From Candidatus Doudnabacteria bacterium (GTDB lineage: Bacteria > Patescibacteriota > Doudnabacteria > UBA920 > O2-02-FULL-48-8): DNA of 64,000 nt. The first letter of the stretch is position 1. Each line of letters opens with the position of its first letter. Both the position numbers and the translations under genes were made by a program. The notes below the pieces were generated by a model that was not told where the DNA came from, did no database searches, and worked only from the letters and a program-made list of their open reading frames with translations. This document shows, in pieces, positions 4,147 through 64,000 of this stretch. The DNA lies in the NCBI GenBank assembly GCA_016186915.1, contig JACPKU010000006.1, positions 249,619 to 313,618 of the forward strand. Direction: 5' to 3'.

Positions 4147-5604
4147 CTACCCCTCTTTCATTGGCGGGAAAATTACAGTCTCGCGCATTGCCTTGTTCAT
4201 GAGCACCGCAAACAGCCGCTCGCTTACCCCGAATCCCACAGCTGGTGGCATGCCATATTCCAACGCCTCGACATAATCCTCATCCATCATTTGCGCTTCC
4301 TTGTCTCCTGCTTCGCGCAGTTTCATCTGCTGCTCAAACCTGGCTTTTTGATCCAGAGGATCGTTCAATTCGGAAAATCCATTGCCCAACTCAGTGCCTG
4401 CTGCCAGAGGTTGAAAACGCAAAACTTTGTTTGAACTCTTAGGGTCGCGTTTAGCCAAAGGCGTGGTTTCAATCGGGTGTCCGACTAAGAAACAAGGCTG
4501 AATCAATTTCGGCCGCACAACTTTTTTATAAATCGCATCAATCAACTTGCCCTTGCCAAGTTTGTCAATACCGCCGATTCCTAACTCTCTTGCCTTTTTA
4601 CGAAGATCACCTTCGTCATTTTTATCTAAATCTAAACCAGTATATTTCTTAAATACTGTAAAGTATTGAAGTTTTTGCCACTTGCCGCCCCAATTAATTT
4701 TCTGCCCTTCGTATTCGGTTTCCATACTACCAATCACAGCCATCACCACTTTTTTAAATAATTTCTCCACCAACTTCATGCCATCCTGATAATCAGCGTA
4801 AGCCCAGTAAAATTCCATGTCATCATATTCTTGCAAGTGTTCGCGATCAATACCTTCGTTGCGAAACAGCCTGCCGACTTCAAAAACTTTTTCGAAACCG
4901 CCAACCAGCAATCTTTTAAGCGGCAATTCCAAAGAAATGCGCAAATAAAAATCGCGATCCAATTTATTGTGATGCGTAACAAACGGCTCCGCGTCCGCGC
5001 CTCCAGGGATGTTTTCCAAAACAGGCGTCCAGACTTCCAAGAAGCCTTGCTTGATCATGAAATTTCGGATGGTTTGCCAAAACACGGCCTTCTTTCGAAA
5101 CAACTCTTTCGTTTCCGGATTAACTAATAAATCTAAATATCGTTTGCGCAGCCTGGTTTCCACATCCTTCAAGCCAAAAAAATCCGAAGGGATGGGACGG
5201 ATAGATTTAGTGAGTAGTTTGTAGTTTGTAGTGAGTAGAGACTTTTCTCCGGAATTGGACAAACCAAGCGTACCAGTTGCCTCCAAAAAATCACCGATAT
5301 CCAACAACGACAAATTTTTATACTGGTCCGCACCCAAACCGTCTTCCTTTAAAATCAACTGGATAGCCCCGCTTTCGTCTTCCAAATTTATGAAAGCCAA
5401 CTTGCCATGTTCGCGCAGCGCCCGAATGCGCCCGACTAATGTCACGTGATCCGTGTTACGTGATCCGTGATCAAAAAGTTCTAAGGCTTGTGCAATGGCG
5501 TGCGTTCGTTCAGTCTTAACCGGATAAGGATCAACCCCTTGTTTTTTTAGTTGTCCTAATTTTTGTATCCGAACTTTCCTAAGTTCTTCTATTTTTTCTG
5601 ACAT
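4147..5604 (-). CDS. lysS: lysyl-tRNA synthetase (class II)
   Basis: N-terminal OB-fold anticodon-binding domain plus class II catalytic core; 485 aa. Confidence 0.9.
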   Translation of the reverse strand: MSEKIEELRKVRIQKLGQLKKQGVDPYPVKTERTHAIAQALELFDHGSRNTDHVTLVGRIRALREHGKLAFINLEDESGAIQLILKEDGLGADQYKNLSLLDIGDFLEATGTLGLSNSGEKSLLTTNYKLLTKSIRPIPSDFFGLKDVETRLRKRYLDLLVNPETKELFRKKAVFWQTIRNFMIKQGFLEVWTPVLENIPGGADAEPFVTHHNKLDRDFYLRISLELPLKRLLVGGFEKVFEVGRLFRNEGIDREHLQEYDDMEFYWAYADYQDGMKLVEKLFKKVVMAVIGSMETEYEGQKINWGGKWQKLQYFTVFKKYTGLDLDKNDEGDLRKKARELGIGGIDKLGKGKLIDAIYKKVVRPKLIQPCFLVGHPIETTPLAKRDPKSSNKVLRFQPLAAGTELGNGFSELNDPLDQKARFEQQMKLREAGDKEAQMMDEDYVEALEYGMPPAVGFGVSERLFAVLMNKAMRETVIFPPMKEG

Positions 5605-5741
5605 AATTCCTGATGCATATTACTTGGCTTTAATTATACCATAAATCTTCAGTATCACCAAAAAAACGAGATAATATTAATATAAAAGATAATAATATGT
5701 GGCGCTATTGATGTTGATGTTAGTTGATGTTATTTTAGAAT

Positions 5742-5768
5742 ACAATTATCCCGATCGGGATTTTTATA
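5742..5768. repeat. 27-bp direct repeat DR-A1 (ACAATTATCCCGATCGGGATTTTTATA) with 14-bp perfect palindrome core ATCCCGATCGGGAT
   Basis: Identical copy at 6357-6383; lies 6 nt downstream of the stop of gene 5775..6353. Confidence 0.9.
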
Positions 5769-5774
5769 ATCGGA

Positions 5775-6353
5775 CTAAACCTTTCTGAGGTTAAATTTTT
5801 CTAATAAATCCTTTTGAATATCAATGTTTTCAGCTATAATCATTCTGACAAATGATCTGACTTCATAAATCTCCTTTAAGAAATCGAGCTCGTCTTCGCA
5901 GGGATAAGGGTACACCCAAACACTCTTTTGAATGGAGGTGAATCCAAGTTCTTTCAGCTTACCTCTAAAAAATTTTCTTGCTGCGCTAAATTTCTCTGGA
6001 ACGTCAAAAATAACCACCCTCCACTTACCATCCCATCGCCTTGGCTTACTTATCACCATTTCATCTAAATTATAACTTAAAAGTCTTTGATGACCATTTT
6101 TTGTTACCTCAACTATTGTTTTTCCCGCATGATTGGACACAGAGATCAGATTCTGCTTTTCAAGATTTCGGAAAGATTGTTCAATTTGCCGGCGATTATA
6201 TTTCTTGAGTCTCTGAAATTCAAATTTACCTAAGCCAAGTTCTTCTGAAAAAATCATTACGCCTAAGGGGCCAGCAACCGGAATAGCTAACATCCCGGCC
6301 GTTGCCACTATTTTTAATATCGTCTTGGCGATTTCTGACCTTTTGGCCTTCAT
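5775..6353 (-). CDS. protein with hydrophobic N-terminus, winged-helix-like middle and Cas2/VapD-like C-terminal domain (paralog A)
   Basis: N-terminal hydrophobic helix ILKIVATAGMLAIPVAGPLGVMIF. C-terminal KWRVVIFDVPEK...GKLKELGFTSIQKSVWVYPY fits the Cas2 beta1-Asp pattern and the R..L...G..vQ.SVF pattern. About 45% identical to ORF 13662..14228. Confidence 0.55.
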   Translation of the reverse strand: MKAKRSEIAKTILKIVATAGMLAIPVAGPLGVMIFSEELGLGKFEFQRLKKYNRRQIEQSFRNLEKQNLISVSNHAGKTIVEVTKNGHQRLLSYNLDEMVISKPRRWDGKWRVVIFDVPEKFSAARKFFRGKLKELGFTSIQKSVWVYPYPCEDELDFLKEIYEVRSFVRMIIAENIDIQKDLLEKFNLRKV

Positions 6354-6356
6354 ATT

Positions 6357-6383
6357 ACAATTATCCCGATCGGGATTTTTATA
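6357..6383. repeat. 27-bp direct repeat DR-A2, identical to DR-A1
   Basis: Lies 3 nt upstream of the ATG of gene 5775..6353. On the minus strand it reads TATAAAAATCCCGATCGGGATAATTGT aat ATG. Confidence 0.9.
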
Positions 6384-17981: not shown

Positions 17982-18084
17982 ATCAGTTATTATACCATTT
18001 TTCAAATAGATAACAAAACTTTTTGGCCCCAATCTAAATAGAATGCTATTATAAATCATCTAGGTCTAGCCACAAGGAGGAAAG

Positions 18085-18369
18085 ATGACTATTTGGGACA
18101 ATGCTACACCCGAACAGATTCTCGACCGAGTCAAGGCAATCGTGGCACCACATGGCTTAAACGCCGAATTTCTCGAAGGGATCCTGTCCGTTGGCGTTCA
18201 AGGGGACGATCGTACCTACACTCCCGTCGTGGTCCTGAACGGGCCGCATCCGGGCTGGGAAATCCTGGAGAGGCTTTCATCACAAATCTCCAACGAAACG
18301 CCCGTGAACCGAGTCACGTTCGAGGTTGCCACTCGGCCCACGACGCTCTCAAACCGGCGAGCGCGATAG
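18085..18369 (+). CDS. small GC-rich ORF homologous to the GMP synthase C-terminal dimerisation domain (gene fragment)
   Basis: SVGVQGDDRTYTPVVVL and ISNETPVNRVTFEVATRPTTL match the GuaA C-terminus (SVGVMGDGRxYDxVVxL and [26 protein letters not shown]). RBS AAGGAGG. Terminator at 18399-18430. About 55% GC. Confidence 0.55.
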   Translation: MTIWDNATPEQILDRVKAIVAPHGLNAEFLEGILSVGVQGDDRTYTPVVVLNGPHPGWEILERLSSQISNETPVNRVTFEVATRPTTLSNRRAR

Positions 18370-18398: not shown

Positions 18399-18430
18399 CC
18401 CGTCGACACTCGCTATCGACGGGATTTTTT
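18399..18430 (+). terminator. intrinsic terminator CCCGTCGA...TCGACGGG plus T-run
   Basis: Seen in the sequence. Confidence 0.6.
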
Positions 18431-19059: not shown

Positions 19060-19500
19060 ACTAAAAAAGAGGCTCGCAAGCAAGGCTTACAAGCCGAAGA
19101 ACGAGGAGGGGAGCAGATCAACCATCCAACCGGTAGCCCTTGTTAAGGCGGCCAGATGGTCAAATCAGTCCCCTCCACCCCGCAGCGCTGACAGCGCTGT
19201 GTTTGCAGCGTGTCTCGTCCGGGCCTTGGGCCTCGGGCAGAGCCAGCCGCTGGGAACTTGTTGTTTCCTCCGAAAAATTGTAGCGGACAGGGAGTTTGGA
19301 TGGTTGAGGCCGGGCCAGCGGAATCAACCAGCCTCCCTCCCCATCCTGTCGGCGCCGAGCGTGTCAACTGGCGCCGAGCTTGTACCGAGGGGATGCGCGC
19401 GCGTAGGGCCAGTAGCAGCCCTTTAGCGTGGCCTTTGTTGCGCACTCACCCCCTCGGACCGCGCTTGTCCAGAAAGGCCCCAGCCCCTCGGACTTGCGCG
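19060..19500 (-). ncRNA. GC-rich (over 60%) structured non-coding segment of about 430 nt; candidate RNase P RNA, strand uncertain
   Basis: No credible ORF; many GC helices. On the minus strand AAG-U-CCGA (near the 5' end) is complementary to UCGGCUU (near the 3' end) with a bulged U, as in the P4 helix of bacterial RNase P RNA. It ends in a U-run. A GGUUGA...UCAACC hairpin is also present. Confidence 0.35.
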
Positions 19501-19583
19501 ATCTTGAGAAACCCAAACCAAAAAAACTTACCTGTCTTTGGTAAGTTATTATATATTTCAAATTACCAAACTGTCAATAGATT

Positions 19584-21865: not shown

Positions 21866-22922
21866 AGTTAAGTAGCTTAACTTCTGCTTCCAGCTCCACG
21901 CCAAATTTACTCTTAACCGCCTGCTTTATGTTCCAAGAGAGGGCTAGCATCTCCCTGGCGGTGGCCTCTCCAATATTTATCAAGGCCAGCGGATGCTTAG
22001 GAGAGATGCCCACTCGCCCCTGCTTATACCCTTTTCTAAAACCCGCGCTTGCCAACAAACATGCCGCAGCCAGCTTAATCTTACCATCTTCTACCCCCCA
22101 AAACCACGGGTCTTGGCAATCGGACTCGCCACCATTTTTTTTCACCAAAAATTTTATTTTATCAAATTCTTCTCTGCTGACGATCGGATTTTTAAAAAAA
22201 GACCCGGCGGTTTTAAACTTTTCAAACCCAGGCAAAATCACATTGCCTTTTTTGGCGCGAATCTCAATTACCGCCTTTCTGACGTCGCGCAAGCTATGTT
22301 GGTTTTGATTGGAAAAGTATTTAACCAGATCCTGATAGTTCAAAACTGACCGGCCGTGTGGGACCAGCGACAATCTAAACTTAGTAACGATATATTTTCC
22401 CGGATTTTTTTTAAAGTCACTGTCACGATATTCAAAACCGCATTGTTCGCGGTTAAATTTAACAATATTACCGCTCCCACATTCAACTGCTTCGACTTCC
22501 TCAAGAACATCACTGATTGTCTGGCCGTACGCTCCAATATTCTGCACCACCGCTCCTCCCGCTGATCCCGGAATCCCGGACAAACATTCAATTCCAGCAA
22601 GGTCTTGCTCGACACAACGCTTAACCACCTCATCCCAATCTTCCCCCGCCCCTATTGTCACCAATGCCTCATCGTCTTTAATCTTAAAGCTTAAATCTTG
22701 AATCTGATTATGAATTACCAGCCCCGAAAACCCTTCGTCTGAGATCAAAACATTGCTCCCGCCTCCTAAAATAAAAATTTTGAGACTCTTTTGATGCGCA
22801 AACTCCAAAGCCTCTCTGACTTCTTCGAGAGAGGTGACTTGGGTATAAAAAGCAGCAAGACCTCCTATTTCAAAGGTCGTTAACTGTTTCAACGGGTAGT
22901 TTTCTTGGACTTTTAAGGCCAT
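21858..22922 (-). CDS. murB: UDP-N-acetylenolpyruvoylglucosamine reductase
   Basis: FAD-binding GGGSN motif; 354 aa. Confidence 0.8.
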   Translation of the reverse strand: MALKVQENYPLKQLTTFEIGGLAAFYTQVTSLEEVREALEFAHQKSLKIFILGGGSNVLISDEGFSGLVIHNQIQDLSFKIKDDEALVTIGAGEDWDEVVKRCVEQDLAGIECLSGIPGSAGGAVVQNIGAYGQTISDVLEEVEAVECGSGNIVKFNREQCGFEYRDSDFKKNPGKYIVTKFRLSLVPHGRSVLNYQDLVKYFSNQNQHSLRDVRKAVIEIRAKKGNVILPGFEKFKTAGSFFKNPIVSREEFDKIKFLVKKNGGESDCQDPWFWGVEDGKIKLAAACLLASAGFRKGYKQGRVGISPKHPLALINIGEATAREMLALSWNIKQAVKSKFGVELEAEVKLLNYE

Positions 22923-23083
22923 CGACTGTTATTTTAACAAAAAAAGTAAAGATAGGTAAGGCTTGCCAGGAACTAGAAGTTTTTATCTATCAAGCCAAGG
23001 GCTTGATATATTCAGCGAAGCTGATAAAACTTTCAGTTCCCGGCTTGAAACTCCTCTTGTTTTAGCCTAAAATAAGAGGGAAG

Positions 23084-23187
23084 CCAGGTAGTGAAAATTT
23101 GCTCGATGCTATCTGACAGCGTGCAAGGAATATTTTTGGTCTTTATATTTGTCGAATTAACAAAGATAGCAAATTTCTACTACCTGG
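23084..23187. repeat. mini-element bounded by 18-bp inverted repeats (CCAGGTAGTGAAAATTTG ... CAAATTTCTACTACCTGG), copy 2
   Basis: Arms nearly identical to 6983-7126. The right arm abuts the ATG of ORF 23189. Confidence 0.7.
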
Positions 23188-23188
23188 T

Positions 23189-24433
23189 ATGACCCTCAAA
23201 ACCCGCTTTACATTAATCGGCATTGGCATCGTTATTTTCTTAATAATTGTGCCGCCTTTAGTTTTGTTCGCCAGTGGTTTCCAAATTGACTGGTCAAATT
23301 TCGCAATCGTAAAAACCGGAACTTTGGTGGTAGAAACCGAGCCCGGCAAAGCGTTGGTCTACCTTAGTGACAAGAAACAAAGAGGAGCAACGCCTTCCAC
23401 GATCCGTTTTTTGCTTCCCAAAGATTATCAAGTCAGGATCGAGAAACCAGGTTACCAGACCTGGACCAAACGGCTGTCTGTCAAATCCCAGCTCGTGACT
23501 TGGGCTAACCTCAACCGCAAATTTATCGCCTTATTTTTATCTGAGCCACTGCCTCTGGTGGATTTTAGCTCTGACCAAACTTTTCTCTCTTCCGACCAGA
23601 GAGAGCTTGTCTTTTCGGTAAACGGCGAGTTTTTTTTCCTCTCTGCAGGCTCTGAAAAACCTGTGAGCTTGGGTCCGGCCACTGCTCTGGCTCCTCCGTT
23701 TGAATTTAATGCCGGACTGGTTTGGGATAACGGACAAAAAGTATACGAAGCGCTAAAAAAATTCTCCGAAATAAATTTGTCGATCTATTCCCCAACGCCA
23801 AAAATATCAACCAACGGCACCTTCACAATTCTGGCTTCCGCTGATCAACTTTGGCTTGTGACTTCTTCAGGCACAGAAGTTATAGCCACTGACATCGATG
23901 CTTATCTATTAGAGAATGACATTTTGTGGTTTATCAAAAATTCCTCGCTGCAAAGCCTAAATCTCACAACCAAGGAATTGCGAACCGTAAAGCAGGACTT
24001 GCCACGCTTTAAAAAAGGCCAAATCATTCGATCGAGCAATTATGTTTTTCTACTCCTCGATGGAGACTTATACTTTGCCAACGAAAGTTTAGATAAAATT
24101 GCCCAAGCCGTTGTGTTCAGTTCATGGAATTACGGCGCGGATAAACTGTTAATTGCCACCAACAACGAAATTAGTCTGTTTGATCCGCAAAACCAAAAAG
24201 TCGACCTCATTCACCGCAGTGTAAGTAATATCAGTAACCCTGTATTCAATGCCGAAACCGGATACGTATTCTTCAGCAATGAGGGCAGAATAAAAGCCAT
24301 CGAACTTGATGGCCGGGACCAAAGAAATATTTTTGAATTTGGAGAAGCGGGATTAGGATTTACCTTGTCAAACAACGGAAAACTGCTATACGTTTTCAGC
24401 GATGAAAACATAAGAATATTGGAAATAAGATAG
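23189..24433 (+). CDS. membrane-anchored PEGA-domain plus beta-propeller-like protein
   Basis: N-terminal TM. PEGA-like TGTLVVETEPGKALVYLSDKKQRGATPSTI...KPGYQTW. Repeated beta-strand modules. It is the only large plus-strand gene in the window. Confidence 0.55.
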   Translation: MTLKTRFTLIGIGIVIFLIIVPPLVLFASGFQIDWSNFAIVKTGTLVVETEPGKALVYLSDKKQRGATPSTIRFLLPKDYQVRIEKPGYQTWTKRLSVKSQLVTWANLNRKFIALFLSEPLPLVDFSSDQTFLSSDQRELVFSVNGEFFFLSAGSEKPVSLGPATALAPPFEFNAGLVWDNGQKVYEALKKFSEINLSIYSPTPKISTNGTFTILASADQLWLVTSSGTEVIATDIDAYLLENDILWFIKNSSLQSLNLTTKELRTVKQDLPRFKKGQIIRSSNYVFLLLDGDLYFANESLDKIAQAVVFSSWNYGADKLLIATNNEISLFDPQNQKVDLIHRSVSNISNPVFNAETGYVFFSNEGRIKAIELDGRDQRNIFEFGEAGLGFTLSNNGKLLYVFSDENIRILEIR

Positions 24434-24446
24434 CCCACAAAACTGC

Positions 24447-24476
24447 ACGTAAAATGCGCGGCCGCGCATTTTACGT
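24447..24476. terminator. 30-bp perfect palindrome ACGTAAAATGCGCGGCCGCGCATTTTACGT between convergent genes
   Basis: Seen in the sequence; a likely bidirectional terminator for ORF 23189 (+) and rnhA (-). Confidence 0.55.
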
Positions 24477-24481
24477 TACGA

Positions 24482-24898
24482 TCAAGCAGCCGCTTTGTCC
24501 AACGCTAGGTTGACCAGCTTATCGGCTAGTCTGTTTTCTTCCCTCGAAACATGCCTAAAAACGACTGACTCAAATTTATTGCTTAGTCGCAGCACTTCCT
24601 TGACCCTGCTCTGCAGTCCTTGCTCTTTCACTTTGTATTCGCCTGATAACTGCTTGACCACCAACTCTGAATCCAAAAAACATTTGACTTCCCTCGCTTG
24701 AAGTTCCGCGGCCTTGGCAAGCGCCGTAATCAACGCGGAATATTCCGCTTGGTTATTGGTAGTCTCACCTATATACCGTCCAATTCGATCAATAATTTTT
24801 CCTTTGGCGTCATAAATCACCACCCCGATAGCCGCCGGCCCGGGATTGCCCCTGGCCCCGCCGTCCGTGTAGATTGTTAGTTGCTTATTGTGTGGCAT
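24482..24898 (-). CDS. rnhA: ribonuclease HI
   Basis: YTDGGARGNPGPAA motif; 138 aa. Confidence 0.85.
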   Translation of the reverse strand: MPHNKQLTIYTDGGARGNPGPAAIGVVIYDAKGKIIDRIGRYIGETTNNQAEYSALITALAKAAELQAREVKCFLDSELVVKQLSGEYKVKEQGLQSRVKEVLRLSNKFESVVFRHVSREENRLADKLVNLALDKAAA

Positions 24899-30089: not shown

Positions 30090-31316
30090 CTATCTTTCCA
30101 GGACCTTAATACCGGGCAAAGTTTTACCTGATAAGAATTCCAGCATGGCGCCGCCGCCCGATGAAATGTGATCAATAAATTCAGAAACCTTGGCCATCCT
30201 GATCATTTCTTCTGTTTCACCGCCACCCACGACGCCAAAAGCGGTCCCTTTTGACCGCGAGGCAAATATTCTGGCTAAACTTAGGGAACCGAAATCAAAT
30301 GGCTTTTTTTCGATCAATCCAAAAGGGCCGCTCCAAACTAAAGTCCTTGCTGGCTTAATATACTCCGCGTACTTTCTAACTGTCTCTGGGCCAATATCCA
30401 TAATCACGTCAGTGGGCTTAACTAGGTCTACTTTGACCGCCCTGATTCTCCCACCCAAAGCCTTGTCTACCACGACGTCAACAGGCAAAACGATTTTTTC
30501 TTTGTGGTTCCGAAGCAAATCTTGAGCCAAATTTACTTCATTCACTTTTGACTTTCCGATCTCGTATCCCTTGGCTTTAAGAAAAGTATTGCCCACGGCG
30601 CCGCCAACTAAAATATAATCAGCTTTTTTGATAAGGTTGTTGATCGTGCCAATCTTATCAACTATTTTCGCTCCACCGATCAAAACAATAAAAGGCGGTT
30701 CGGGATTGTTGATGATTTTATTTAAAGCCTGCATTTCTTTTACCAGCCCTACTCCGGCATATGATGGGAGCCTGGTGGCAACGCCATAGACTGAAGCCTC
30801 TTTGCGGTGATCCACTGAAAACGCATCATTGACAAATATCTCGGCAAATGCAGCAAGCTTTTCGATAAACTCCTCGCTGTTCGCCATTTCTTCTGTATAG
30901 AAACGCAAGTTCTCCAAAAAAAGAATATCTCCTTCTGCAAGCTGCTGGCTCAAATCAGAATAGTCGCGCATGGTAATGTCCGGCTCCAAAAAATTTATGT
31001 GAGGAACAGGATAGCCAGACAGTTTGTCGCGAATCTTAATCACTTTGTAGCCGATTTTTTCACCCAGCTTCAGCGCCACAGGAAAAAGACTTTCGGCTTT
31101 GTCCCAGCCTTCAGGGCGATCCAGGTGAGCGATAATAATCACCTTCGCGCGGTTCTGAATAAGATAATTAAGCGTGGGCATGATATCAGTAATTCTGGAA
31201 TCGTCAGCCACTTCCCATTCCTCGGTGTGAATGTTTTTCTGAAGCGGCACGTCAAACCCCGCGCGCAGTAACACCCTGCGGCCTTTTACATTTACAGATG
31301 TGATTGATTTGATCAT
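30090..31316 (-). CDS. pgk: phosphoglycerate kinase
   Basis: 408 aa. Confidence 0.9.
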   Translation of the reverse strand: MIKSITSVNVKGRRVLLRAGFDVPLQKNIHTEEWEVADDSRITDIMPTLNYLIQNRAKVIIIAHLDRPEGWDKAESLFPVALKLGEKIGYKVIKIRDKLSGYPVPHINFLEPDITMRDYSDLSQQLAEGDILFLENLRFYTEEMANSEEFIEKLAAFAEIFVNDAFSVDHRKEASVYGVATRLPSYAGVGLVKEMQALNKIINNPEPPFIVLIGGAKIVDKIGTINNLIKKADYILVGGAVGNTFLKAKGYEIGKSKVNEVNLAQDLLRNHKEKIVLPVDVVVDKALGGRIRAVKVDLVKPTDVIMDIGPETVRKYAEYIKPARTLVWSGPFGLIEKKPFDFGSLSLARIFASRSKGTAFGVVGGGETEEMIRMAKVSEFIDHISSGGGAMLEFLSGKTLPGIKVLER

Positions 31317-36740: not shown

Positions 36741-36754
36741 ATCCCTTTTCTCCA

Positions 36755-36782
36755 CATTCATACACGACTGTATGAATGTATT
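36755..36782. repeat. 28-bp perfect palindrome CATTCATACA-CGAC-TGTATGAATG(TATT), copy 2
   Basis: Identical copies at 1-28, 37283-37310 and 49569-49595. Its last T plus the next A form the stop codon of the YerC-like gene. Confidence 0.9.
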
Positions 36783-37272
36783 AACCTTCTAAGGTTCTTT
36801 TTGCAGAACGTTGTTTCAGTTTCTTTCTGATAAAACGGTTTGCCGCTGGAACTCCTTCGGTGACTAAATTTGCCAAAAATGTTTCGGCCGGAGCTTTTCG
36901 GCGCACCCTTCTTTCTAAAATTGCTTGTCTTTCTTCGCGCTTCCCTTGGTATTTATGTTCCAGATCTTGTAACTTAGAGTGTACCTTTCTCAATCCATCG
37001 CCATGAATCACGAGAATATTACTGACATTATTAATAGTTCTGGAAGTAACCCTCAAAGCATTTATTATTTCTTCATAGGTTTGACCTTGAAGTAGTCGTC
37101 GCGCAATTTCTAATCTTTTAGCGAACATTTTGTATTCCGTATGTGTAAACAAATCTTTAAACAGCAACCTGATATCCTCCTTAGAATCCATCAGAGTAAA
37201 TGCGGCCCATAAATTGTTCACATAGTGACCAAAATGCTCGGGATCTAAATGTAGTCTTGAAAGTTTTGTCAT
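36781..37272 (-). CDS. YerC/YecD (TrpR-like) family HTH protein with basic C-terminal tail
   Basis: LFTHTEYKMFAKRLEIARRLLQGQTYEEIINALRVTSRTINNVSNILVIHGDG matches the YerC pattern. Likely start is MTKLS. Confidence 0.6.
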   Translation of the reverse strand: MTKLSRLHLDPEHFGHYVNNLWAAFTLMDSKEDIRLLFKDLFTHTEYKMFAKRLEIARRLLQGQTYEEIINALRVTSRTINNVSNILVIHGDGLRKVHSKLQDLEHKYQGKREERQAILERRVRRKAPAETFLANLVTEGVPAANRFIRKKLKQRSAKRTLEG

Positions 37273-37282
37273 TTTTTTTTCA

Positions 37283-37310
37283 CATTCATACACGACTGTA
37301 TGAATGTATT
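37283..37310. repeat. 28-bp perfect palindrome, copy 3, about 10 nt upstream of the YerC-like start
   Basis: Seen in the sequence. Confidence 0.9.
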
Positions 37311-46684: not shown

Positions 46685-47455
46685 TTACAATTTAGCTTTG
46701 GTGAGGACCTCAAAACCGGTTTTTGTCACCAGTATAGTGTGCTCAAAATGCGCGGCTGGCTGGCCATCATAAGTTGTCACGGTCCAACCGTCTTGGGAAA
46801 ATTTGATCCTGGGATCTTTCATGTTCAGCATGGGCTCAACAGCCAAAACCATGCCCTCTCTAAGCTCCAGGCCTTCGCCTCGTTTGCCGAAACACGGAAC
46901 TTCCGGCTCTTCCCAGACTGATCTGCCCACTCCATGCCCGACTAGCTCTCGAACCACGACAAATCCCGCGTCTATGGCGGTTTTCTCGATAGCATAACCA
47001 ATGTCCCCGATGTGGTTTCCTGATTTTATCTGATTTAAACCATTTGCCAAGCTGTGCTTGGCCGCCGCGATTAAATCCAGCAACTTCGAATTCACTTGTC
47101 CGATGGGCACAGTAATCGCCGCATCAGTAAAAAAGCCTTGATAATTCACTCCTAAATCCAGACCAACTACATCGCCAGCTCTTAAAATTTTGTCTTTGTG
47201 CGGAATACCGTGCACCACCTCTTCGTTGATCGATACGCACAGAGAAGCGGGAAACGGCCTCTCCTGCGGATTCGACTGGTGCCCCTTGAATGCCGGCTTG
47301 CCGCCGCGGGCCAGAATCTCTGACTCCGCTAAACGATCGAGCTCTTCAGCCGAAATCCCAGGGACGGCTTTCTCGGCCACCAACGCCAAAACTTCAGCGA
47401 GCATCTGCCCGCTTCTTCTTAGCTTTTCAATCTCTTTTGGATCGCTGATAACCAT
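46685..47455 (-). CDS. map: methionine aminopeptidase type I
   Basis: 256 aa with a typical MAP sequence. Confidence 0.9.
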   Translation of the reverse strand: MVISDPKEIEKLRRSGQMLAEVLALVAEKAVPGISAEELDRLAESEILARGGKPAFKGHQSNPQERPFPASLCVSINEEVVHGIPHKDKILRAGDVVGLDLGVNYQGFFTDAAITVPIGQVNSKLLDLIAAAKHSLANGLNQIKSGNHIGDIGYAIEKTAIDAGFVVVRELVGHGVGRSVWEEPEVPCFGKRGEGLELREGMVLAVEPMLNMKDPRIKFSQDGWTVTTYDGQPAAHFEHTILVTKTGFEVLTKAKL

Positions 47456-47987
47456 TTATTGCTTTCTGAATATCCAAAGATACCTTCTTAATGCTTTGAT
47501 TGCCGTTAATGAGTCTTAATTTCTTTAAGCCTTGATAGTATTTAACCGTTCTACTAACCTCTTTGTTATAATAAGCAATTCTACTCTTTATCAACCTTAC
47601 ATCAACATCTTCCAATCTCGCGGCACGGAGTTTAGAACGCTTGATGATTTCTCTCTTTGGAATTTTTATATAAATCGCAAAAAAATTCCTATGTCTTTTC
47701 TTAAGTTGCCTTACCAAATATTCTGCTTCGTGCCTGAGCCTAGCGGCCCCGACAAATATGATATTGCCTCGCTTTAAATCCTTCAAATAGTGGTTCAGGA
47801 ACGGGATAATTAAATTAGTCGGGGCTGGAACGCCATGCCGATATTTATAGCCTTTTAAATTTCGAAGATATTCACCGGAGCGGGCAAGTTTAACCTTGTA
47901 TTTCTTTGCCAACAATAAGGCCTGGGTATCTTTTCCAGAGGTAGAGTCTCCTAATAAAATTAAATCAAAACCCAATCTTTTTTTCAT
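47427..47987 (-). CDS. divergent nucleoside-monophosphate kinase (adk-like paralog)
   Basis: Degenerate P-loop LLGDSTSGKDTQA; 186 aa; overlaps the map start. Confidence 0.45.
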   Translation of the reverse strand: MKKRLGFDLILLGDSTSGKDTQALLLAKKYKVKLARSGEYLRNLKGYKYRHGVPAPTNLIIPFLNHYLKDLKRGNIIFVGAARLRHEAEYLVRQLKKRHRNFFAIYIKIPKREIIKRSKLRAARLEDVDVRLIKSRIAYYNKEVSRTVKYYQGLKKLRLINGNQSIKKVSLDIQKAINGYQRSKRD

Positions 47988-48071: not shown

Positions 48072-48665
48072 TCATTTATTTATTCCTAATTTCTCTAATA
48101 TCTCCTGGTGCACTGCTTCGATCGGCTGATCGCCATTGATGATTATTAGTTTACCGTTTTTTTGATAATAGTCTTTTACAGGAGCGGTTTTTTTCTGATA
48201 CTCATCAAATCGGGTCATTATTATCTTTGGATCGTCGTCTGCTCTTCGTCCATGAGCGCCTTCTCCTTCTATCCGCTTGGACAAACGTTTATGTAATTGA
48301 TCTCGGTCAACATTCAAAAACAAAACCACGATATCCATAACCGTATATTTACTCATCAACTCATTCAGAAGCTCAACTTGATCCAAAGTCCTTGGATATC
48401 CATCCAGAATCAAACCTTCTTCAGAGGTTAAGCTCTCTAACTTTTTGACAAAAATTTGTCGGATTATATCAATGGGTAAAATAACACCTTTATCGACAAT
48501 TACTTTAATCTCTCGACCCAAGCGATTGTCTTGTTTGGCATACTCTCTCGATAATTCTCCTGTGCTAAAATAGCCAAACCCCAAAACTTTGCTCAAAAGT
48601 TTACTCTGAGTACCTTTACCGCTGCCGGGCGCCCCCATTAATAAGATTATCTTTTTTAACTTCAT
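48072..48665 (-). CDS. adk: adenylate kinase
   Basis: GAPGSGKGTQS; likely start is MKLKKIILLMG. Confidence 0.9.
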   Translation of the reverse strand: MKLKKIILLMGAPGSGKGTQSKLLSKVLGFGYFSTGELSREYAKQDNRLGREIKVIVDKGVILPIDIIRQIFVKKLESLTSEEGLILDGYPRTLDQVELLNELMSKYTVMDIVVLFLNVDRDQLHKRLSKRIEGEGAHGRRADDDPKIIMTRFDEYQKKTAPVKDYYQKNGKLIIINGDQPIEAVHQEILEKLGINK

Positions 48666-49042
48666 TTTTTTTCCAACATTAAACATGCAGAATTAATGCA
48701 ATATCGTTTGCCGCCTCGCTCCTGCGGGCCGTCGTCAAACACATGGCCCAAATGCGAGCCACAGTTTTTGCAAACCACTTCAGTGCGACGCACGCCATGA
48801 TCATTATCTTCCCGAAGCTCCACATGCTCCAGGTTGGCCGGTTCAGTAAAAGACGGCCAACCAGTACCGGAATCAAACTTGGCGTCAGAAGAAAACAATT
48901 CCTGTCCGCAAGCAGCGCATTTGTACATCCCCTTATCTTTGGTGTTTACATACTTGCCTGAAAACGGCGCTTCTGTGCCTTTCTTGCGCATTATATGATA
49001 CTGTTCAGGGGTCAATTTTTCCTTCAATTCCTCATCTGTCAT
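48662..49042 (-). CDS. msrB: peptide-methionine (R)-S-oxide reductase
   Basis: Two CxxC pairs plus the catalytic RYCINSA. Confidence 0.9.
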   Translation of the reverse strand: MTDEELKEKLTPEQYHIMRKKGTEAPFSGKYVNTKDKGMYKCAACGQELFSSDAKFDSGTGWPSFTEPANLEHVELREDNDHGVRRTEVVCKNCGSHLGHVFDDGPQERGGKRYCINSACLMLEKK

Positions 49043-49096
49043 ACTCGCATTATATCAAAAAACACCTTTGTTTCCAAAGATGCTCACGTATAAACA

Positions 49097-49125
49097 TTGA
49101 CAATTAAACCGTTTCAACCTATGCT
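49097..49125 (+). promoter_or_regulatory. promoter TTGACA-N17-TATGCT for ORF 49176
   Basis: Seen in the sequence. Confidence 0.5.
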
Positions 49126-49175
49126 GGTGGCGAAGTAATTCCGCTTCTCCAAACAACCCTTAGGAGGATCTGATC

Positions 49176-49397
49176 ATGGGCAAGGGAAGATTTGCGGAAG
49201 AGATCGAGCACAAGCCGTCATCGCCCGGCCAAGAAATGGTGGATCTCGTGCTCACCTGCGGCATCTCGGCCCTCGCCGGATCTCAGGATACGGTCGAATG
49301 CCGCATCACGGACCACGAGCTTGGCAAGACCTACACCGGCACGGGGAGCACGGAGTCCGAGGCCCGCGATGACGCGCTCGGCAAACTGAATCGCTGA
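49176..49397 (+). CDS. GC-rich 73-aa hypothetical protein with RBS AGGAGG and a terminator
   Basis: About 60% GC. The AGGAGGATCTGATCATG translation-initiation region resembles the AGGAGGATCTCATG of ORF 62309. Terminator GAGTGAG...CTCACTC-T8 at 49420-49457. Confidence 0.5.
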   Translation: MGKGRFAEEIEHKPSSPGQEMVDLVLTCGISALAGSQDTVECRITDHELGKTYTGTGSTESEARDDALGKLNR

Positions 49398-49568
49398 CCG
49401 ACGGGTGGTCTTCGGCGGTGAGTGAGGTTCTGACAAAGAATCTCACTCATTTTTTTTAAAATATATCTCCTTACAACCCCCAGCGAGGGTTTTGGTTTAC
49501 CCGCCGGACTTTCGGGTGCCGATCATTCGACCGGACAAGTGTCTCGAAACGAGACTCGGACTTACATA

Positions 49569-49595
49569 CATTCATACACGACTGTATGAATGTAT
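49569..49595. repeat. 28-bp palindrome, copy 4 (27/28), intergenic
   Basis: Seen in the sequence; about 60 bp upstream of the -35 of ORF 49690. Confidence 0.9.
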
Positions 49596-49654
49596 GGCAA
49601 ATCCCAACCCCCATATTTGCAGGCAACACAAGCAACAATACACAATACTTCTTT

Positions 49655-49683
49655 TTGACAAAATTGTCAATGCAAAGTAAAAA
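49655..49683 (+). promoter_or_regulatory. promoter TTGACA-N17-TAAAAA(T) ending about 6 nt before the ATG (leaderless-type)
   Basis: Seen in the sequence. Confidence 0.4.
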
Positions 49684-49689
49684 TTAATC

Positions 49690-49881
49690 ATGCTCAATAA
49701 CGAGGATATCCAAAAATTATCTGCGGTGTTAGCCACAAAGGAAGACTTGAAGGATTTTTATACAAAGTCCGATATGGATGAAAGATTTGGCTCATTGCAG
49801 ACTGCTATTGACGGCTTGGCGAAACTGGTCACAGATTTTCGTAATGAACATGTCATCATTCATAAACGCCTGAAGTTTTAG
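49690..49881 (+). CDS. 63-aa helical hypothetical protein, apparently leaderless
   Basis: Promoter abuts the ATG. A terminator hairpin at 49947-49975 is shared with secY. Confidence 0.4.
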   Translation: MLNNEDIQKLSAVLATKEDLKDFYTKSDMDERFGSLQTAIDGLAKLVTDFRNEHVIIHKRLKF

Positions 49882-49946
49882 AAGATTGGGCAAAACAAGT
49901 ATCAAAAAATTGGGTATCTCTTTGCCGTTTTAATATTTAAATATAA

Positions 49947-49975
49947 AACACCCGGCAGTTCGCTGGGTGTTTTAT
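49947..49975. terminator. bidirectional intrinsic terminator AACACCCGGCAG-TTCG-CTGGGTGTT with flanking A-run and T-run
   Basis: Lies between the convergent ORF 49690 (+) and secY (-). Confidence 0.6.
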
Positions 49976-49998
49976 ATATATCATCCACAAACGATCAG

Positions 49999-51336
49999 CT
50001 AAAAGTCTTCGTAGTCGCGCATCACCATCTGGCTCTGCACCTGCTTCATCACTTCAATCACCACGGCCACAGCTATCAAAATCCCAGTACCGCCCAAGGT
50101 CAAAGCCTGGGTTTGGGTAAATCCTTGGATGATAAACGGCAAAACCGCAATTAGCCCCAAGAATATCGCGCCGGCCAAGGTTATTCGATTTAAAACCTTG
50201 TAAAGAAACTCGGCAGTCTGTCGCCCTGGGCGCAAGCCCGGTATAAACCCGCCCTGCTTTTGGATGTTGTCGGATATTTCATCCGGGTTGAATACAATCG
50301 CTGTGTAAAAATAAGTAAAAGCCACGACCAAGAGAAAATAAATAATCCCATAATAAGTCTGGTTTTGAAAAAAATTATTTACGGCACTGGCAATATTGGC
50401 AACCACTTCGGTTTTGGCACTGGAGAAAAAATTGGCGATCAGGCCCGGAAACAGCAGAATTGAAATAGCGAAAATGATTGGGATCACGCCGGCTTGATTA
50501 ACGCGCAAGGGCAGATGCGTACTCACCCCGCCATAGAGTTTGTTCCCCCTGACTCTTTTGGCGTAAGACACCGGGATGTTTCTCTGCGCTTCAGTGATCA
50601 TCACTATCCCAGCCACCACCAGCAAGGCTACGGCCATAAAAGACGCGGCAGTAACCAGCCCGGAAGTCGAAATCCCACCAGTCGCCGTGGTAATAGTAGA
50701 GAACCCTTGTTGCACAGCCGCGGGCAATTGCGCCACGATTCCCGCAAAAATGATCAAAGAAATTCCGTTGCCAAGCTTATATTCGCTGATCGTCTCTCCA
50801 ATCCACATCAGCAAAGCGGTTCCGGCAGTTACGGAAAGCAGGGCCACGAACCATTGGAAGCCGGTGAATCCGGAAATCACGGTTGCTCCGCTGCTGCGTG
50901 AGAGCAAAACGATTGTCCCGTAAGCCTGCAGAGCGGTCAGCGGCACAGTGAGCAGTCGTGTGTACTGGTTTATTTTCGCGCGTCCCGCATCCCCGCCTTC
51001 CTTAGCCAGCTCTCCCAGACTAGGAATGATGATGGTCAATAACTGCATAATAATCGAAGCGGTAATATACGGGCCGACTCCAAGCATGGCCACAGAAAAA
51101 TTGCTCAAGCCTCCTCCTGAAAATATATTAAATAGGCCAAACAACTGGTTTGAGTTAAAAAGATTTTGGAGGCTTGAAAGATCAACTCCGGGAATCGGGA
51201 CGTGAGCCAAAATCCTGGTCACCACTAAAAGCATGGCCACAATCAAGATGTTATGGCGCAGTTCCTTAACTTTCCAGATTTGAGAAATTCTCGACATAAG
51301 TATGTGATCCGAATCTACGAATATTATGCTAATCAA
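49999..51336 (-). CDS. secY: preprotein translocase SecY
   Basis: 10 TM helices; 445 aa. Confidence 0.9.
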   Translation of the reverse strand: MISIIFVDSDHILMSRISQIWKVKELRHNILIVAMLLVVTRILAHVPIPGVDLSSLQNLFNSNQLFGLFNIFSGGGLSNFSVAMLGVGPYITASIIMQLLTIIIPSLGELAKEGGDAGRAKINQYTRLLTVPLTALQAYGTIVLLSRSSGATVISGFTGFQWFVALLSVTAGTALLMWIGETISEYKLGNGISLIIFAGIVAQLPAAVQQGFSTITTATGGISTSGLVTAASFMAVALLVVAGIVMITEAQRNIPVSYAKRVRGNKLYGGVSTHLPLRVNQAGVIPIIFAISILLFPGLIANFFSSAKTEVVANIASAVNNFFQNQTYYGIIYFLLVVAFTYFYTAIVFNPDEISDNIQKQGGFIPGLRPGRQTAEFLYKVLNRITLAGAIFLGLIAVLPFIIQGFTQTQALTLGGTGILIAVAVVIEVMKQVQSQMVMRDYEDF

Positions 51337-60914: not shown

Positions 60915-62096
60915 TTATTTATTAATCTTCGTAACCACTCCCGCGCCCACAGTGTGTCCGCCTTCTCGAATGGCAAATCTTTGCTTTTCTTCCAAGGCCA
61001 CTGGGTTAATCAATTTAACCTTCAAGGTCACGGTGTCGCCCGGCATAACCATTTCTTGTCCCTCTGGCAGCTCAACCTCGCCGGTAACATCCGTGGTTCG
61101 AATATAGAACTGGGGCTTATAACCTTTGAAGAACGGAGTGTGTCGGCCGCCCTCTTCTTTGGTCAAAATGTAAATCTCTGCGTCAAACTCGGTATGAGGT
61201 GTGACTGATCCTGGTTTGGCCAAAACCTGCCCTCGTTCCACTTCTTCTTTTTTGGTTCCTCGAAGCAAGACGCCTGCGTTGTCTCCGGCTCTTCCGCTAT
61301 CCAGTTGCTTGTTGAACATTTCAATTCCAGTAACCACGGTTTTTTGAGTTGGTTTCAACCCTACAATTTCCACTTCTTCATTTAGCTTTACTTCACCGCG
61401 CTCGATTCTGCCAGTGACCACCGTGCCTCGGCCTTCAATGGTGAAGATGTCTTCGATCGGCATCAGGTAAGGCTTGTCAGTTTCTCTGACTGGTTCCGGA
61501 ATATAGGTGTCGACAGCTTCCAACAGTTTTTCAATTGAAGCAGCCCCTTCCGGGTCATCTTCCAAAGCCTTCAAAGCGGAGCCGCGAATGATTGGCGTAT
61601 CTTTTCCAGGAAACTGATATTTATTCAAAAGTTCTCGCACTTCTTCTTCCACCAAATCCACCAATTCCTTGTCATCCACCATATCCACCTTGTTCAAAAA
61701 CACGACAATGTAAGGAACACCGACTTGTTTAGCCAAGAGAATGTGTTCCCTGGTTTGAGGCATCGGACCATCCGCGGCAGACACCACCAAGATCGCGCCG
61801 TCCATCTGCGCCGCTCCAGTAATCATGTTTTTGATGTAGTCAGCGTGTCCCGGAGCATCGACGTGTGCGTAGTGGCGCTTTTCCGTCTCATACTCCACGT
61901 GCGAGGTGTTGATAGTAATACCTCTTTCTTTCTCTTCTGGAGCATTGTCAATCGAACTAAAATCTCGCTCTTTCGCCAAACCCTTTTTAGCCAAGACGTG
62001 GGTTATAGCAGCAGTCAGAGTGGTTTTGCCGTGGTCAACGTGACCGATTGTTCCAATGTTTACGTGTGGTTTGGAACGATTAAATTGTTCAGCCAT
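60915..62096 (-). CDS. tuf: elongation factor Tu
   Basis: [10 protein letters not shown]; 393 aa. Confidence 0.95.
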
Positions 62097-62257: not shown

Positions 62258-62286
62258 TTGCAAAAAGATCCAATAAATACTATACT
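62258..62286 (+). promoter_or_regulatory. promoter TTGCAA-N17-TATACT for ORF 62309
   Basis: Seen in the sequence; the ORF-track start at 62246 lies upstream of the -10. Confidence 0.5.
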
Positions 62287-62308
62287 TTTAGGCAACAAGG
62301 AGGATCTC

Positions 62309-62686
62309 ATGGCAATTGCTTTTACTGTCGTTGCGATCGCTGTTCCCCTGATCGCGTTTGTCCTTGGTGTGTACTTCTACCGAACGCGTCCGAACAGAAG
62401 GTCTGGCGGAGATATCGTCTCCTCTAGAGATCACATCACGGAAGAAAAGGTCCACCGTGCGATGCAGGCTCAGTCCGACCCAGTGGAATGGGAGAGACTG
62501 CTCTCTGAGCTCGAACTACACATCCGGGAATGCAGACAGTGCCACAAGCAATTCCTTCCTTCGGTTCGCGCTGTGCGCCTCTTGCCACCAGGCGAGGTGC
62601 TCCTCAATCTCTCGCCCGAAAACGACCGATGGAACAAGATGGCGCTGGGACTCAACGCCTCTGCCGACGATCGAGCGAACGACTAA
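62309..62686 (+). CDS. GC-rich 125-aa single-TM hypothetical protein (MAIAFTVVAIAVPLIAFVLGVYF...CRQCHKQF...)
   Basis: RBS AAGGAGG. T8 run after the stop. GC-rich relative to the flanks. Confidence 0.5.
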   Translation: MAIAFTVVAIAVPLIAFVLGVYFYRTRPNRRSGGDIVSSRDHITEEKVHRAMQAQSDPVEWERLLSELELHIRECRQCHKQFLPSVRAVRLLPPGEVLLNLSPENDRWNKMALGLNASADDRAND

Positions 62687-62815
62687 CCCCGTCCCTCGGC
62701 CGTCTTTTTTTTATCCTTCCGCCCTTCCTTCTTTTCCACTCCGCGGATCAGGAGAAAAGCGAGGCGTGGATTTTCAGCAGCCTTCGGAGGCCAACACCAA
62801 CTATTTCTGTAGCGA

Positions 62816-62930
62816 GGGATTGTTGCAAAATTAACCTTCGGAAGCCGGTTCGTCCGGCTGAGAAAGTAGGCTGCATCCCGCCGAAGTTCCCACGAGGCGG
62901 GATGACAGCCGATATTTTTGCAACAATCCC
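62816..62930. ncRNA. structured element closed by a perfect 15-bp inverted repeat (GGGATTGTTGCAAAA ... TTTTGCAACAATCCC) enclosing nested and pseudoknot-capable hairpins
   Basis: GCCGG-TTCGT-CCGGC hairpin. GGCTGCATCCCGCC...GGCGGGATG-A-CAGCC helix whose loop CCGAAG can pair with the upstream CTTCGG. No ORF. Confidence 0.4.
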
Positions 62931-62970
62931 GAGCGATGACGACCGGTAATTTACAGTCAGCTCGAGCGAT

Positions 62971-64000
62971 TTATTTTCCTGTTTGTCCTACTCTTATCTT
63001 CCCTGATTCGCCCACTATCTTCTCTGCCACGTTTTTCGGCACCTCTTCGTAATGGTCAAATTCCATGCTGTAAGAAGCCTGGCCTTGCGACATTGACCGG
63101 ATCTGAGTGGCGTAGCCAAACATCTCAGCCAGAGGCACCAGCGCGTCGATCACCTTGAGATTTCCGCGGTCTGTCATTTCCAGTATCTTGCCGCGCTTGG
63201 CGTTGAGATCGCCAATCACGTCGCCCATGGCGGTTTCCGGAGTAGTGACCTCGACTTTCATTATCGGCTCAAGCAAAATTGGTTTGGCTTTTTTAAAAGC
63301 ATCCTGAAACGCCAAGGATCCTGCTATTTTAAAAGCGATCTCAGAAGAATCAACTTCATGATAACTGCCGTCAAACAAAGTGACTTTCGTATCAATCACG
63401 GGATAACCGGCAATTACACCCCTGTCCGCGGCTTCCTTGATGCCCTTATCCACTGCCGGGATATATTCACGCGGGATATCTCCGCCCACCACTTCATTGA
63501 TAAACTCATTGCCCTTGCCTGGGTCGTTTGGTTCAATCCTGATCAAAACATGGCCGTACTGCCCGCGCCCACCAGTTTGTCTGATGTATTTGCTTTCTGC
63601 TTCTGCCTTGCCCTTAATCGTTTCTTTGTAGGCCACCTGCGGGCGCCCGACATTGGCTTCCACTTTGAACTCGCGCTTCATTCTGTCCACCAAAATTTCC
63701 AAATGCAGCTCACCCATCCCGCTGATCAAAGTTTGGTTGGTCTCTTCTTCGGCGCGGACTTTGAAAGTCGGATCTTCTTCCGCCAACTTCTGCAAAGCCA
63801 ATCCCATTTTTTCTTGATCGGCCTTGGTCTTCGGCTCAATTGCCACGGAAATCACCGGTTCGGGGAAAGTAATCCTTTCCAGAATCAGCGGGTTGTCCGC
63901 GTCACACAAAGTATCCCCGGTGAAGGTATCTTTCGGGCCGACCAATGCGGCAATCTCACCGGCAAAAACCTCTTTCACTTCTTCTCGGGAATCAGCGTGC
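62971..64000 (-). CDS. fusA: elongation factor G, C-terminal part (gene continues beyond the window end)
   Basis: Domains III-V of EF-G; 335 aa within the window. Confidence 0.9.

Follow-up and report, generated by a model that had tools for sequence, protein, structure and literature searches.

The 64,000-nt window analysed here belongs to a metagenome-assembled genome (MAG) of Candidatus Doudnabacteria, an uncultured groundwater bacterium of the candidate phyla radiation (CPR). The GC content of this window is 45.4%, GC at third codon positions (GC3) in host genes is 0.49, and nearly all genes, including the S10-spc ribosomal protein cluster, lie on the minus strand. Our subject is a set of three short, GC-rich open reading frames (ORFs) on the plus strand, termed orf73, orf125 and orf94 after the lengths of their products, which a preliminary description of the sequence had portrayed as expression units inserted into conserved, normally tight operon junctions and acquired from a common higher-GC source. 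The orf73 product is identical to the NCBI protein with the locus tag HYW51_03020, which is encoded on a 420-kb Doudnabacteria contig. Our analysis bears out much of the anatomy in that description, but it places the genes at operon boundaries that vary across the clade and separates two likely imports, orf73 and orf125, from an older resident, orf94.

All three ORFs are present, and the promoter elements attributed to orf73 and orf125 were found, as was a promoter-like site for orf94 (Table 1). A scan around orf73 gave 7 promoter-like sites where 1.7 were expected, and the orf73 promoter stands back to back with a TG-extended msrB promoter on the minus strand (49077-49049). The orf125 promoter is divergent from two minus-strand tuf promoters (62242-62214 and 62163-62135). 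Intrinsic terminators had been described for the units. This holds for orf73, whose terminator fold (z-score -4.6) was equalled in 0 of 200 shuffled sequences, and for orf94, but not for orf125, where the stem folds no better than shuffled sequence (z -0.5) and was missed by the terminator scan. We infer from these elements that each unit is expressed from its own sigma-70-type promoter and a strong Shine-Dalgarno (SD) site, with a clear terminator in two of the three cases.

Table 1. Coordinates of the three units and of neighbouring features in the window (position 1 is the first nucleotide of the window; z, folding z-score)
Feature	Position	Strand	Remarks
orf94 promoter-like site	18023..18052	+	TTGGCC-18-TATTAT, TG before -10 box; divergent from holB
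orf94 SD site	18075..18080	+	AGGAGG, 4 nt before ATG
orf94	18085..18369	+	94 aa; GC 0.57, GC3 0.63
orf94 intrinsic terminator	18399..18430	+	8-bp GC-rich stem then T-run; z -2.2
msrB	48662-49042	-	overlaps first adk by 25 nt
orf73 promoter	49097..49125	+	sigma-70-type, TTGACA-N17-TATGCT, 10/12 match
orf73 SD site	49162..49167	+	AGGAGG, 8 nt before ATG; inside 10-mer AGGAGGATCT
orf73	49176..49397	+	73 aa; GC 0.62, GC3 0.77
orf73 intrinsic terminator	49417..49459	+	15-bp stem, 5-nt loop (49417-49451), then T8
GC-rich structured segment	49455..49640	-	z -4.4; contains 28-nt palindrome 49568-49595
Promoter palindrome	49642..49684	both	TTGACAAAATTGTCAA (49655-49670)
orf63	49690..49881	+	63 aa; host-like composition (GC 0.39); starts ~5 nt past -10 box
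secY operon terminator hairpin	49938..49980	-	GC-rich stem then TTTTATATTT; z -4.4
secY	49999-51336	-	
tuf	60915-62096	-	
orf125 promoter-like site	62258..62286	+	TTGCAA-N17-TATACT, 9/12 match
orf125 SD site	62298..62303	+	AGGAGG, 5 nt before ATG
orf125	62309..62686	+	125 aa; GC 0.56, GC3 0.63
orf125 phage-shared patch	62591..62653	+	64 nt / 21 aa; IMG/VR scan
orf125 weak terminator-like element	62666..62712	+	imperfect stem (62666-62704) then T8
fusA, 3' part	62971-63978	-	

The setting of the units differs from that first proposed. Specifically, orf73 had been assigned to the secY-adk junction; it actually lies between secY and msrB, with msrB preceding adk. The hairpin terminator after secY means that the gene cluster is broken at that point and, because msrB, tuf and holB also have promoters of their own, the units occupy operon boundaries rather than tight operons. 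Each unit thus stands head to head with the next minus-strand operon (msrB-adk, tuf-S10 and holB, respectively), downstream of the end of the preceding one, in spacers that may tolerate new DNA.

The start signals of the three genes set them apart from the rest of the window. In a survey of the 30 nt upstream of 60 window genes, AGGAGG precedes all three units but only 2 of the 57 host genes (Fisher p = 3e-4), making it rarer in the host than the preliminary description had noted, and both host occurrences fall within the coding end of the preceding gene. The copy before rplR was considered as a functional host SD site and rejected, as it is inside the C-terminal coding sequence of L6 and is missing in about half of the relatives. 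Core genes of the Doudnabacteria clade are almost never SD-led, both in the window and at related loci (L009-L025, L057). An anti-SD motif often goes undetected in a subgroup of Parcubacteria (PMC9297842); our literature search found no paper on SD use in Doudnabacteria.

The composition of the units is also atypical, as had been claimed. Among 1310 windows of the same length cut from host coding sequence, none reaches the GC or GC3 of orf73 (z 3.1 and 3.5, respectively), and orf125 and orf94 rank in the top 0.4-2% of host windows. Furthermore, GC differs by codon position in the named frames (chi-square p = 0.0017, 0.0003 and 0.02), and this three-base periodicity supports the frames as read.

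The protein encoded by orf73 is acidic (net charge -5), with about 20 N-terminal residues predicted to be disordered followed by a beta-beta-beta-alpha domain of about 50 residues. It is an orphan in a word-indexed search of 5.8 billion proteins, which returned no Doudnabacteria homolog. A HMMER search of 1.84 billion representatives recovered two weak relatives that are significant database-wide, P0007 (E 2.8e-4) and P0008 (E 4.8e-4), both from outside the Doudnabacteria clade. An alignment of the three sequences spans about 50 residues, 16 of them invariant, and orf73 is thus a member of a tiny uncharacterised family without a Pfam model. P0008 is encoded on a 66% GC contig and its composition is native there (GC3 0.85). 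P0007 (locus L090, GCA_010672895.1, contig JAAHFR010001477.1, 1004-1477) has a GC of 0.54 and a GC3 of 0.64 and, like orf73, is richer than its surroundings, a 44% GC contig; it also carries a C-terminal extension of about 100 residues fused to the orf73-homologous part. The start annotated for P0007 probably lies downstream of the true one. An N-terminus of the type MG(K/R)xR(F/Y) is seen in two of the three family members and is obtained for P0007 if the start is moved upstream.

An AlphaFold2 model of orf73 built from these three sequences has a core pLDDT (predicted local distance difference test) of 77-84 and a mean of 64. The prediction resembles a double-stranded RNA-binding domain (dsRBD), although in a check against the alpha-beta-beta-beta-alpha order of that domain this moderate-confidence model gave no confident prediction for the first helix. 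In dsRBDs, helix 2 begins with a basic motif of the KKxAK type that contacts double-stranded RNA. This motif is absent from orf73, where the corresponding residues read STESEARDDA. No Pfam family, including dsrm (PF00035), matches at E <= 1, and in a profile search of PDB the only hit was a marginal one (E 0.31), a chain called 'RNA-binding protein'. Because of the missing dsrm match, the acidic helix start and the net charge, we treat the protein as predicted to be dsRBD-like in fold only. Protein-binding dsRBDs are known, such as Staufen dsRBD5, Loquacious dsRBD3 and TRBP dsRBD3, and orf73 might act through a protein partner or, less likely, RNA.

Comparison with related genomes indicates how the region after secY has changed. 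A SecY-based scan yielded 18 loci (74-81% SecY identity, most labelled Doudnabacteria), of which 16 extend to adk. The junction had been called normally tight, but its gap is 60-88 bp in seven of these 16 loci and 191-2060 bp in the other nine. None of the 16 gaps contains a homolog of msrB, orf73 or orf63, and msrB is present at this locus only in the genome studied here. Seven of the nine longer gaps hold other ORFs, of 100, 114, 180, 196, 211, 263 and 482 aa, which are mutually unrelated except for the 100- and 114-aa pair (27% identical) and of which one alone belongs to a Pfam family, carrying a sigma-54-interaction AAA+ domain. All seven stand behind an SD sequence (AAGGAGG, GGAGGA or AAGGAG), and most exceed their locus in GC, the extreme being a 196-aa ORF at L014 with a GC3 of 0.81 in a locus of 46% GC. 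The only other ORFs with a perfect AGGAGG across these loci are rplR and two internal false starts. The variable gaps and the unrelated, SD-led cargo together indicate that the spacer after secY is a clade-wide hot spot of gene turnover, as judged from these loci, with cargo that is SD-marked and mostly orphan. In this setting orf73 would be lineage-specific cargo that most likely reached the hot spot by lateral transfer. When tuf, msrB and S10 were looked up as exact proteins, only the same population came back, and no strain without the units.

Pieces resembling sigma-54 enhancer-binding proteins occur in the secY-adk spacer of three relatives (L019 5671-6462, L010 5397-5699 and L020 5424-5768). 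One piece is the AAA+ sigma-54-interaction domain, with a Pfam E-value of 4e-57. The remaining two, the ORFs of about 100 aa with 27% identity, have no Pfam match but look like the C-terminal Fis-type helix-turn-helix region. These pieces could be relics of an older cargo gene or the result of repeated acquisitions. Also, two divergent adenylate-kinase-like genes stand in tandem after secY in the window (47427-47987 and 48072-48686), an arrangement kept in most of the Doudnabacteria loci examined.

The spacer between secY and msrB contains, in order from secY, the secY terminator, orf63, a promoter palindrome, a structured GC-rich stretch and orf73. The palindrome provides -35 boxes in both directions: TTGACA-18-AAAAAT on the plus strand (49655-49684) is directed at orf63, and TTGACA-17-TATTGT on the minus strand (49670-49642) is directed at orf73. 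The minus-strand promoter is kept in the relative L014 (about 5540-5600), where its -10 box is TATAAT and it is directed at the GC-rich cargo ORF of that locus. The possibility that orf63 is the counterpart of the L014 ORF at the same position was rejected, since the two proteins show no similarity and have the promoter alone in common. No minus-strand terminator was found between the promoter at 49670 and a hairpin at 49085-49060, and a transcript from this promoter would therefore cross all of orf73 in antisense. The plus-strand orf73 transcript itself is only mildly structured (z -2.2), with the terminator contributing much of this value.

A 578-bp part of the spacer (49095-49672) is bounded by inverted copies of an 11-nt sequence, CATTGACAATT, and we estimate that about 0.2 such pairs would be expected by chance. 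We considered a miniature inverted-repeat or insertion-sequence element in this interval and rejected it, because the arms are promoter -35 boxes, there is no flanking duplication and the window holds no other copy. A perfect palindrome of 27-30 nt, (A)CATTCATACAcgacTGTATGAATGTAT, occurs four times in the window in the same orientation (1-27, 36754-36781, 37282-37309 and 49568-49595; 0 expected), with one copy about 120 nt downstream of the orf73 terminator. Another copy adjoins the -10 box (TACAAT) of the promoter for a minus-strand gene (36781-37272) whose product matches the Pfam Trp_repressor family (E 1.4e-9). This arrangement suggests that the palindrome, which reads CATTCATACAcgacTGTATGAATG, is a candidate operator through which a TrpR/YerC-type repressor would control its own gene and a small regulon.

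The second unit, orf125, encodes a single-pass membrane protein with a predicted N-terminal transmembrane helix (residues 2-25) and a soluble part of about 100 residues; a single-sequence AlphaFold2 model was uninformative beyond the helix. It is an orphan in the protein database search. Toxins of type I toxin-antitoxin systems are usually shorter than 60 aa, hydrophobic and paired with an overlapping antisense RNA, and this identity was rejected for orf125 given its length, single helix and soluble part.

A scan of IMG/VR revealed a short patch that orf125 shares with a 333-aa orphan ORF on a 75.7-kb viral contig (IMGVR_UViG_3300045996_003052). At the DNA level the two are 85.9% identical over 64 nt (72.5 bits, in frame), a match that by our own estimate is significant even against about 10^11 bases, and at the protein level 24 of 36 residues are identical. 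The shared peptide is GEVLLxLSPENDRWNKMALG, or GEVLL(N/H)LSPENDRWNKMALG(L/I) in its aligned form. The mismatches are mostly synonymous, so the peptide is evidently under purifying selection in the orf125 frame, and its conservation speaks both for a coding orf125 and for a tie to the gene pool of phages. GC in the viral region is about 55%, near that of orf125, and the region also holds a DksA/TraR zinc-finger ORF and a GIY-YIG endonuclease amid orphan ORFs. A degenerate motif search revealed no further viral contig with the peptide. These observations point to orf125 as a membrane orphan with a phage-shared module that may have come from the mobile gene pool.

The fusA-tuf junction had likewise been described as tight. 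An EF-Tu scan, which covered phylogenetically mixed metagenome contigs rather than Doudnabacteria, gave gaps of about 30-2760 bp, or 130-2760 bp in low-GC, CPR-like contigs, and some of these gaps carry small SD-led ORFs on the opposite strand. These gaps and those after secY do not fit the proposed insertion into conserved junctions; the sites lie where operons meet, are provided with terminators and promoters, and vary across the clade. In the window, the 280 nt between the fusA stop and orf125 (62690-62970, minus strand) have a well-defined fold (z -5.3) with two hairpins inside a long-range helix of 15 bp (GGGAUUGUUGCAAAA / UUUUGCAACAAUCCC); the spacer contains no ORF and matches nothing in Rfam. 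The end of an independent Logan contig, at 62914, falls inside this structure.

The third unit, orf94, scores 31.2 bits (E 2.2e-7) with the Pfam profile GMP_synt_C (PF00958), the C-terminal dimerisation domain of GuaA, and so exceeds the curated threshold of 27 bits. It also matches GuaA entries of PDB (E 4e-4 and 7e-4), aligning to residues 494-566 of human GMPS and to subunit B of Pyrococcus GuaA, and contains the motif GVQGDDRTY. Unlike GuaA, however, its 94-aa product consists of this domain alone, with its own start site and terminator. Lacking both the ATP-pyrophosphatase and the glutamine amidotransferase domain, it cannot be a GMP synthase.

Three homologs of orf94 were found, with 65-68% identity and lengths of 78-93 aa. 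The ortholog in L007 (5001-5267) occupies the corresponding junction, again next to M50-RRF-BNR-holB, and is equipped with a TTGACA promoter, a TTAGGAGGATTCCATG start site and a terminator of its own; an equivalent SD sequence precedes the homologs in both L007 and L008. Over codon-aligned stretches, orf94 and holB each share 65% amino acid identity with L007, and third positions at conserved orf94 codons are saturated (0.47 identity, compared with 0.43-0.50 in the neighbouring genes). At conserved codons, GC3 is 0.73 and 0.67 in the two orthologs, whereas it is 0.32-0.51 in the neighbouring genes. By these sequence comparisons orf94 is an old gene that has been vertically inherited at the holB junction, with its GC-richness maintained, and it would represent an older member of the same architectural class as the other two units. 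The proposed foreign origin thus finds partial support for orf73, absent from the 16 relatives, and for orf125, with its phage patch, whereas a recent acquisition of orf94 is not supported. At the same junctions of relatives, orf73 is found in none of the 16, and the orf94 ortholog in L007 is still GC-rich. High GC is consequently no clean mark of recent transfer in this genome.

Close to orf94, the minus-strand interval 19070-19577 runs from a perfect TTGACA-18-TATAAT promoter at 19577-19548 to a terminator at 19095-19071, with about 450 nt between them. Its interior reaches a GC of 0.68, has no protein-like ORF and folds with -239.9 kcal/mol (z -7.6). It is not a transfer-messenger RNA (tmRNA), and relaxing the Rfam search to E <= 1 brought no match either. 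We regard it as a candidate large structured RNA of an undescribed kind.

Several observations concern the rest of the window. Two stretches of more than 1 kb each, 21905-23188 and 30176-31312, lack a convincing long ORF in a genome that is otherwise tightly packed. A perfect 30-nt palindrome, ACGTAAAATGCGCGGCCGCGCATTTTACGT, at 24447-24476 lies between the convergent genes 23189-24433 (plus) and 24482-24898 (minus) and is probably a bidirectional terminator. A 28-nt direct repeat containing a short palindrome, TACAATTATCCCGATCGGGATTTTTATA, is located at 5741-5768 and 6356-6383, on both sides of the ORF at 5775-6353. Rfam detected no RNA family in the window, either at gathering thresholds or at E <= 1, and ARAGORN found no tRNA or tmRNA.

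Searches of mobile and defence gene collections yielded little beyond the orf125 patch. PADLOC (anti-phage defence) gave 0 matches for the units, and PHROGs (phage proteins) gave marginal ones (E 0.024 and 0.39) in addition to a GuaA-like match for orf94; orf73 and orf125 have nothing significant in Pfam, PHROGs or PADLOC. The IMG/VR scans contained no member of the orf73 or orf94 family. Searches of GenBank phages and PLSDB plasmids by tblastn, which include orf73, produced no real matches, and a lone Shinella hit (E 0.4) was rejected as chance because it is inside a 796-aa gene on the opposite strand.

The units recall two known kinds of accessory DNA. Phage 'morons', which Juhala et al. and Hendrix et al. 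reportedly described in 2000 from the lambdoid phages HK97 and HK022, likewise combine an autonomous promoter, one ORF and a factor-independent terminator between contiguous gene blocks, with a composition unlike that of their neighbours and a presence that varies among relatives. In contrast to morons, the units sit in a CPR chromosome at operon boundaries with no prophage context seen, and one of them, orf94, is old and vertically inherited. Genomic islets, like the secY spacer, have conserved flanks (here secY and adk) and varying cargo, mostly orphans of atypical composition. All three units are atypical in composition, and orf73, though not orf94, is absent at the same site in relatives. 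They differ from islets in being very small (0.3-0.5 kb), in having no detectable integrase, tRNA or direct repeats, and in that the cargo is SD-marked in a genome whose core genes are not.

We consider it rather probable that these are three accessory mini-genes, monocistronic, protein-coding and independent of one another, in operon-boundary spacers, with orf73 and orf125 as likely imports and orf94 as an older resident. On the present sequence comparisons, orf73 was most likely, and orf125 probably, imported from a mobile or higher-GC gene pool. Some findings weigh against this reading. No mobility signature (tRNA, integrase, target-site duplication or repeat family) was found beside the units, the orf73 homologs are weak and its fold model draws on just three sequences, and the phage link of orf125 spans only 21-36 residues. 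Moreover, given the long retention of high GC3 by orf94, the composition of the other two units says less about transfer than it appears to.

The best-placed alternative, which we nonetheless regard as unlikely, is that the units belong to a native class of small, divergent, SD-dependent genes in which selection maintains high GC, perhaps because it serves mRNA stability or structure or a distinct way of initiating translation, so that orf73 and orf125 may be fast-evolving natives. The behaviour of orf94 speaks for it, as this gene has diverged as much as holB while staying GC-rich and is SD-led in three lineages, and core genes lack such a site. However, the absence of orf73 from the junction in 16 relatives and of any Doudnabacteria homolog among 5.8 billion proteins, the mutual unrelatedness of the hot-spot cargo but for one pair, and the DNA patch common to orf125 and a phage all argue against it.

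A more far-reaching proposal, to which we give little credence, is that Doudnabacteria have two initiation regimes, one for SD-less core genes and one for AGGAGG-dependent mini-genes with maintained GC. In the secY spacer the second might be coupled to an antisense RNA from the conserved minus-strand promoter plus the candidate TrpR-family operator; this RNA would be fully complementary to the mRNA of orf73, whose product is predicted to be dsRBD-like. If this were true, the orf73 locus would be a self-contained sense/antisense regulatory module rather than imported cargo only.

It is improbable that the ORFs are untranslated and that their DNA encodes non-coding structured RNA or lies opposite long minus-strand leaders, with open frames that arise because GC-rich DNA is poor in stops. 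Each GC-rich segment does contain several overlapping ORFs in other frames, structured GC-rich RNAs without coding signal occur nearby (19070-19550, 62690-62970 and 49455-49640), and a conserved minus-strand promoter is directed at orf73. Set against this are the perfect AGGAGG 4-8 nt before the ATG of every unit in a genome that almost never uses one, the GC periodicity in the named frames, protein-level homologs of orf73 and orf94, the mainly synonymous changes in the phage patch and the mild structure of the orf73 transcript.

Even less probable is the claim in the preliminary description that one higher-GC donor supplied all three units as related expression cassettes, for which it had cited near-identical start regions. 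The 10-mer AGGAGGATCT indeed occurs exactly twice in the window, at the start sites of orf73 and orf125, and all three units are GC-rich and on the plus strand. However, the shared signal comprises the SD sequence plus 4 nt and is a generic strong SD site; AGGAGGAT-type sites also precede unrelated ORFs in other genomes (e.g., L007 and L113). The units show no other DNA similarity to one another and have no dispersed copies in the window, and their products are unrelated. GC3 is unequal (0.77, 0.63 and 0.63 for orf73, orf125 and orf94), leaders are about 45 nt for orf73 and about 15 nt for orf125, and the vertical descent of orf94 defeats the idea of one donor for three units.

Finally, it is scarcely conceivable that GC-rich pieces of another organism were misjoined into the MAG contig: independent contigs do end near orf73 and orf125 (49422, 49594 and 62914), but two breaks coincide with the repeated palindrome (49594) and another falls within a hairpin (49422), and the units are not assembly chimeras because independent assemblies of three sequencing runs are contiguous from msrB to orf73 and that of one run joins orf125 to tuf.

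With this support for accessory mini-genes of partly foreign origin, the units resemble fairly ordinary gene turnover with a few odd details. Their products either lack an annotation or are labelled hypothetical. The orf73 family and the peptide shared by orf125 and a phage are new, if minor, additions to the uncharacterised small proteins, and small ORFans as hot-spot cargo are already familiar. CPR genomes are tiny and streamlined, and how they gain genes is poorly known; the locus after secY offers a concrete turnover hot spot. If the contrast in SD use between cargo and core genes extends genome-wide, it could help in recognising which genes of such genomes are accessory or imported, and the lasting high GC of orf94 cautions against equating a deviation in GC with recent transfer.

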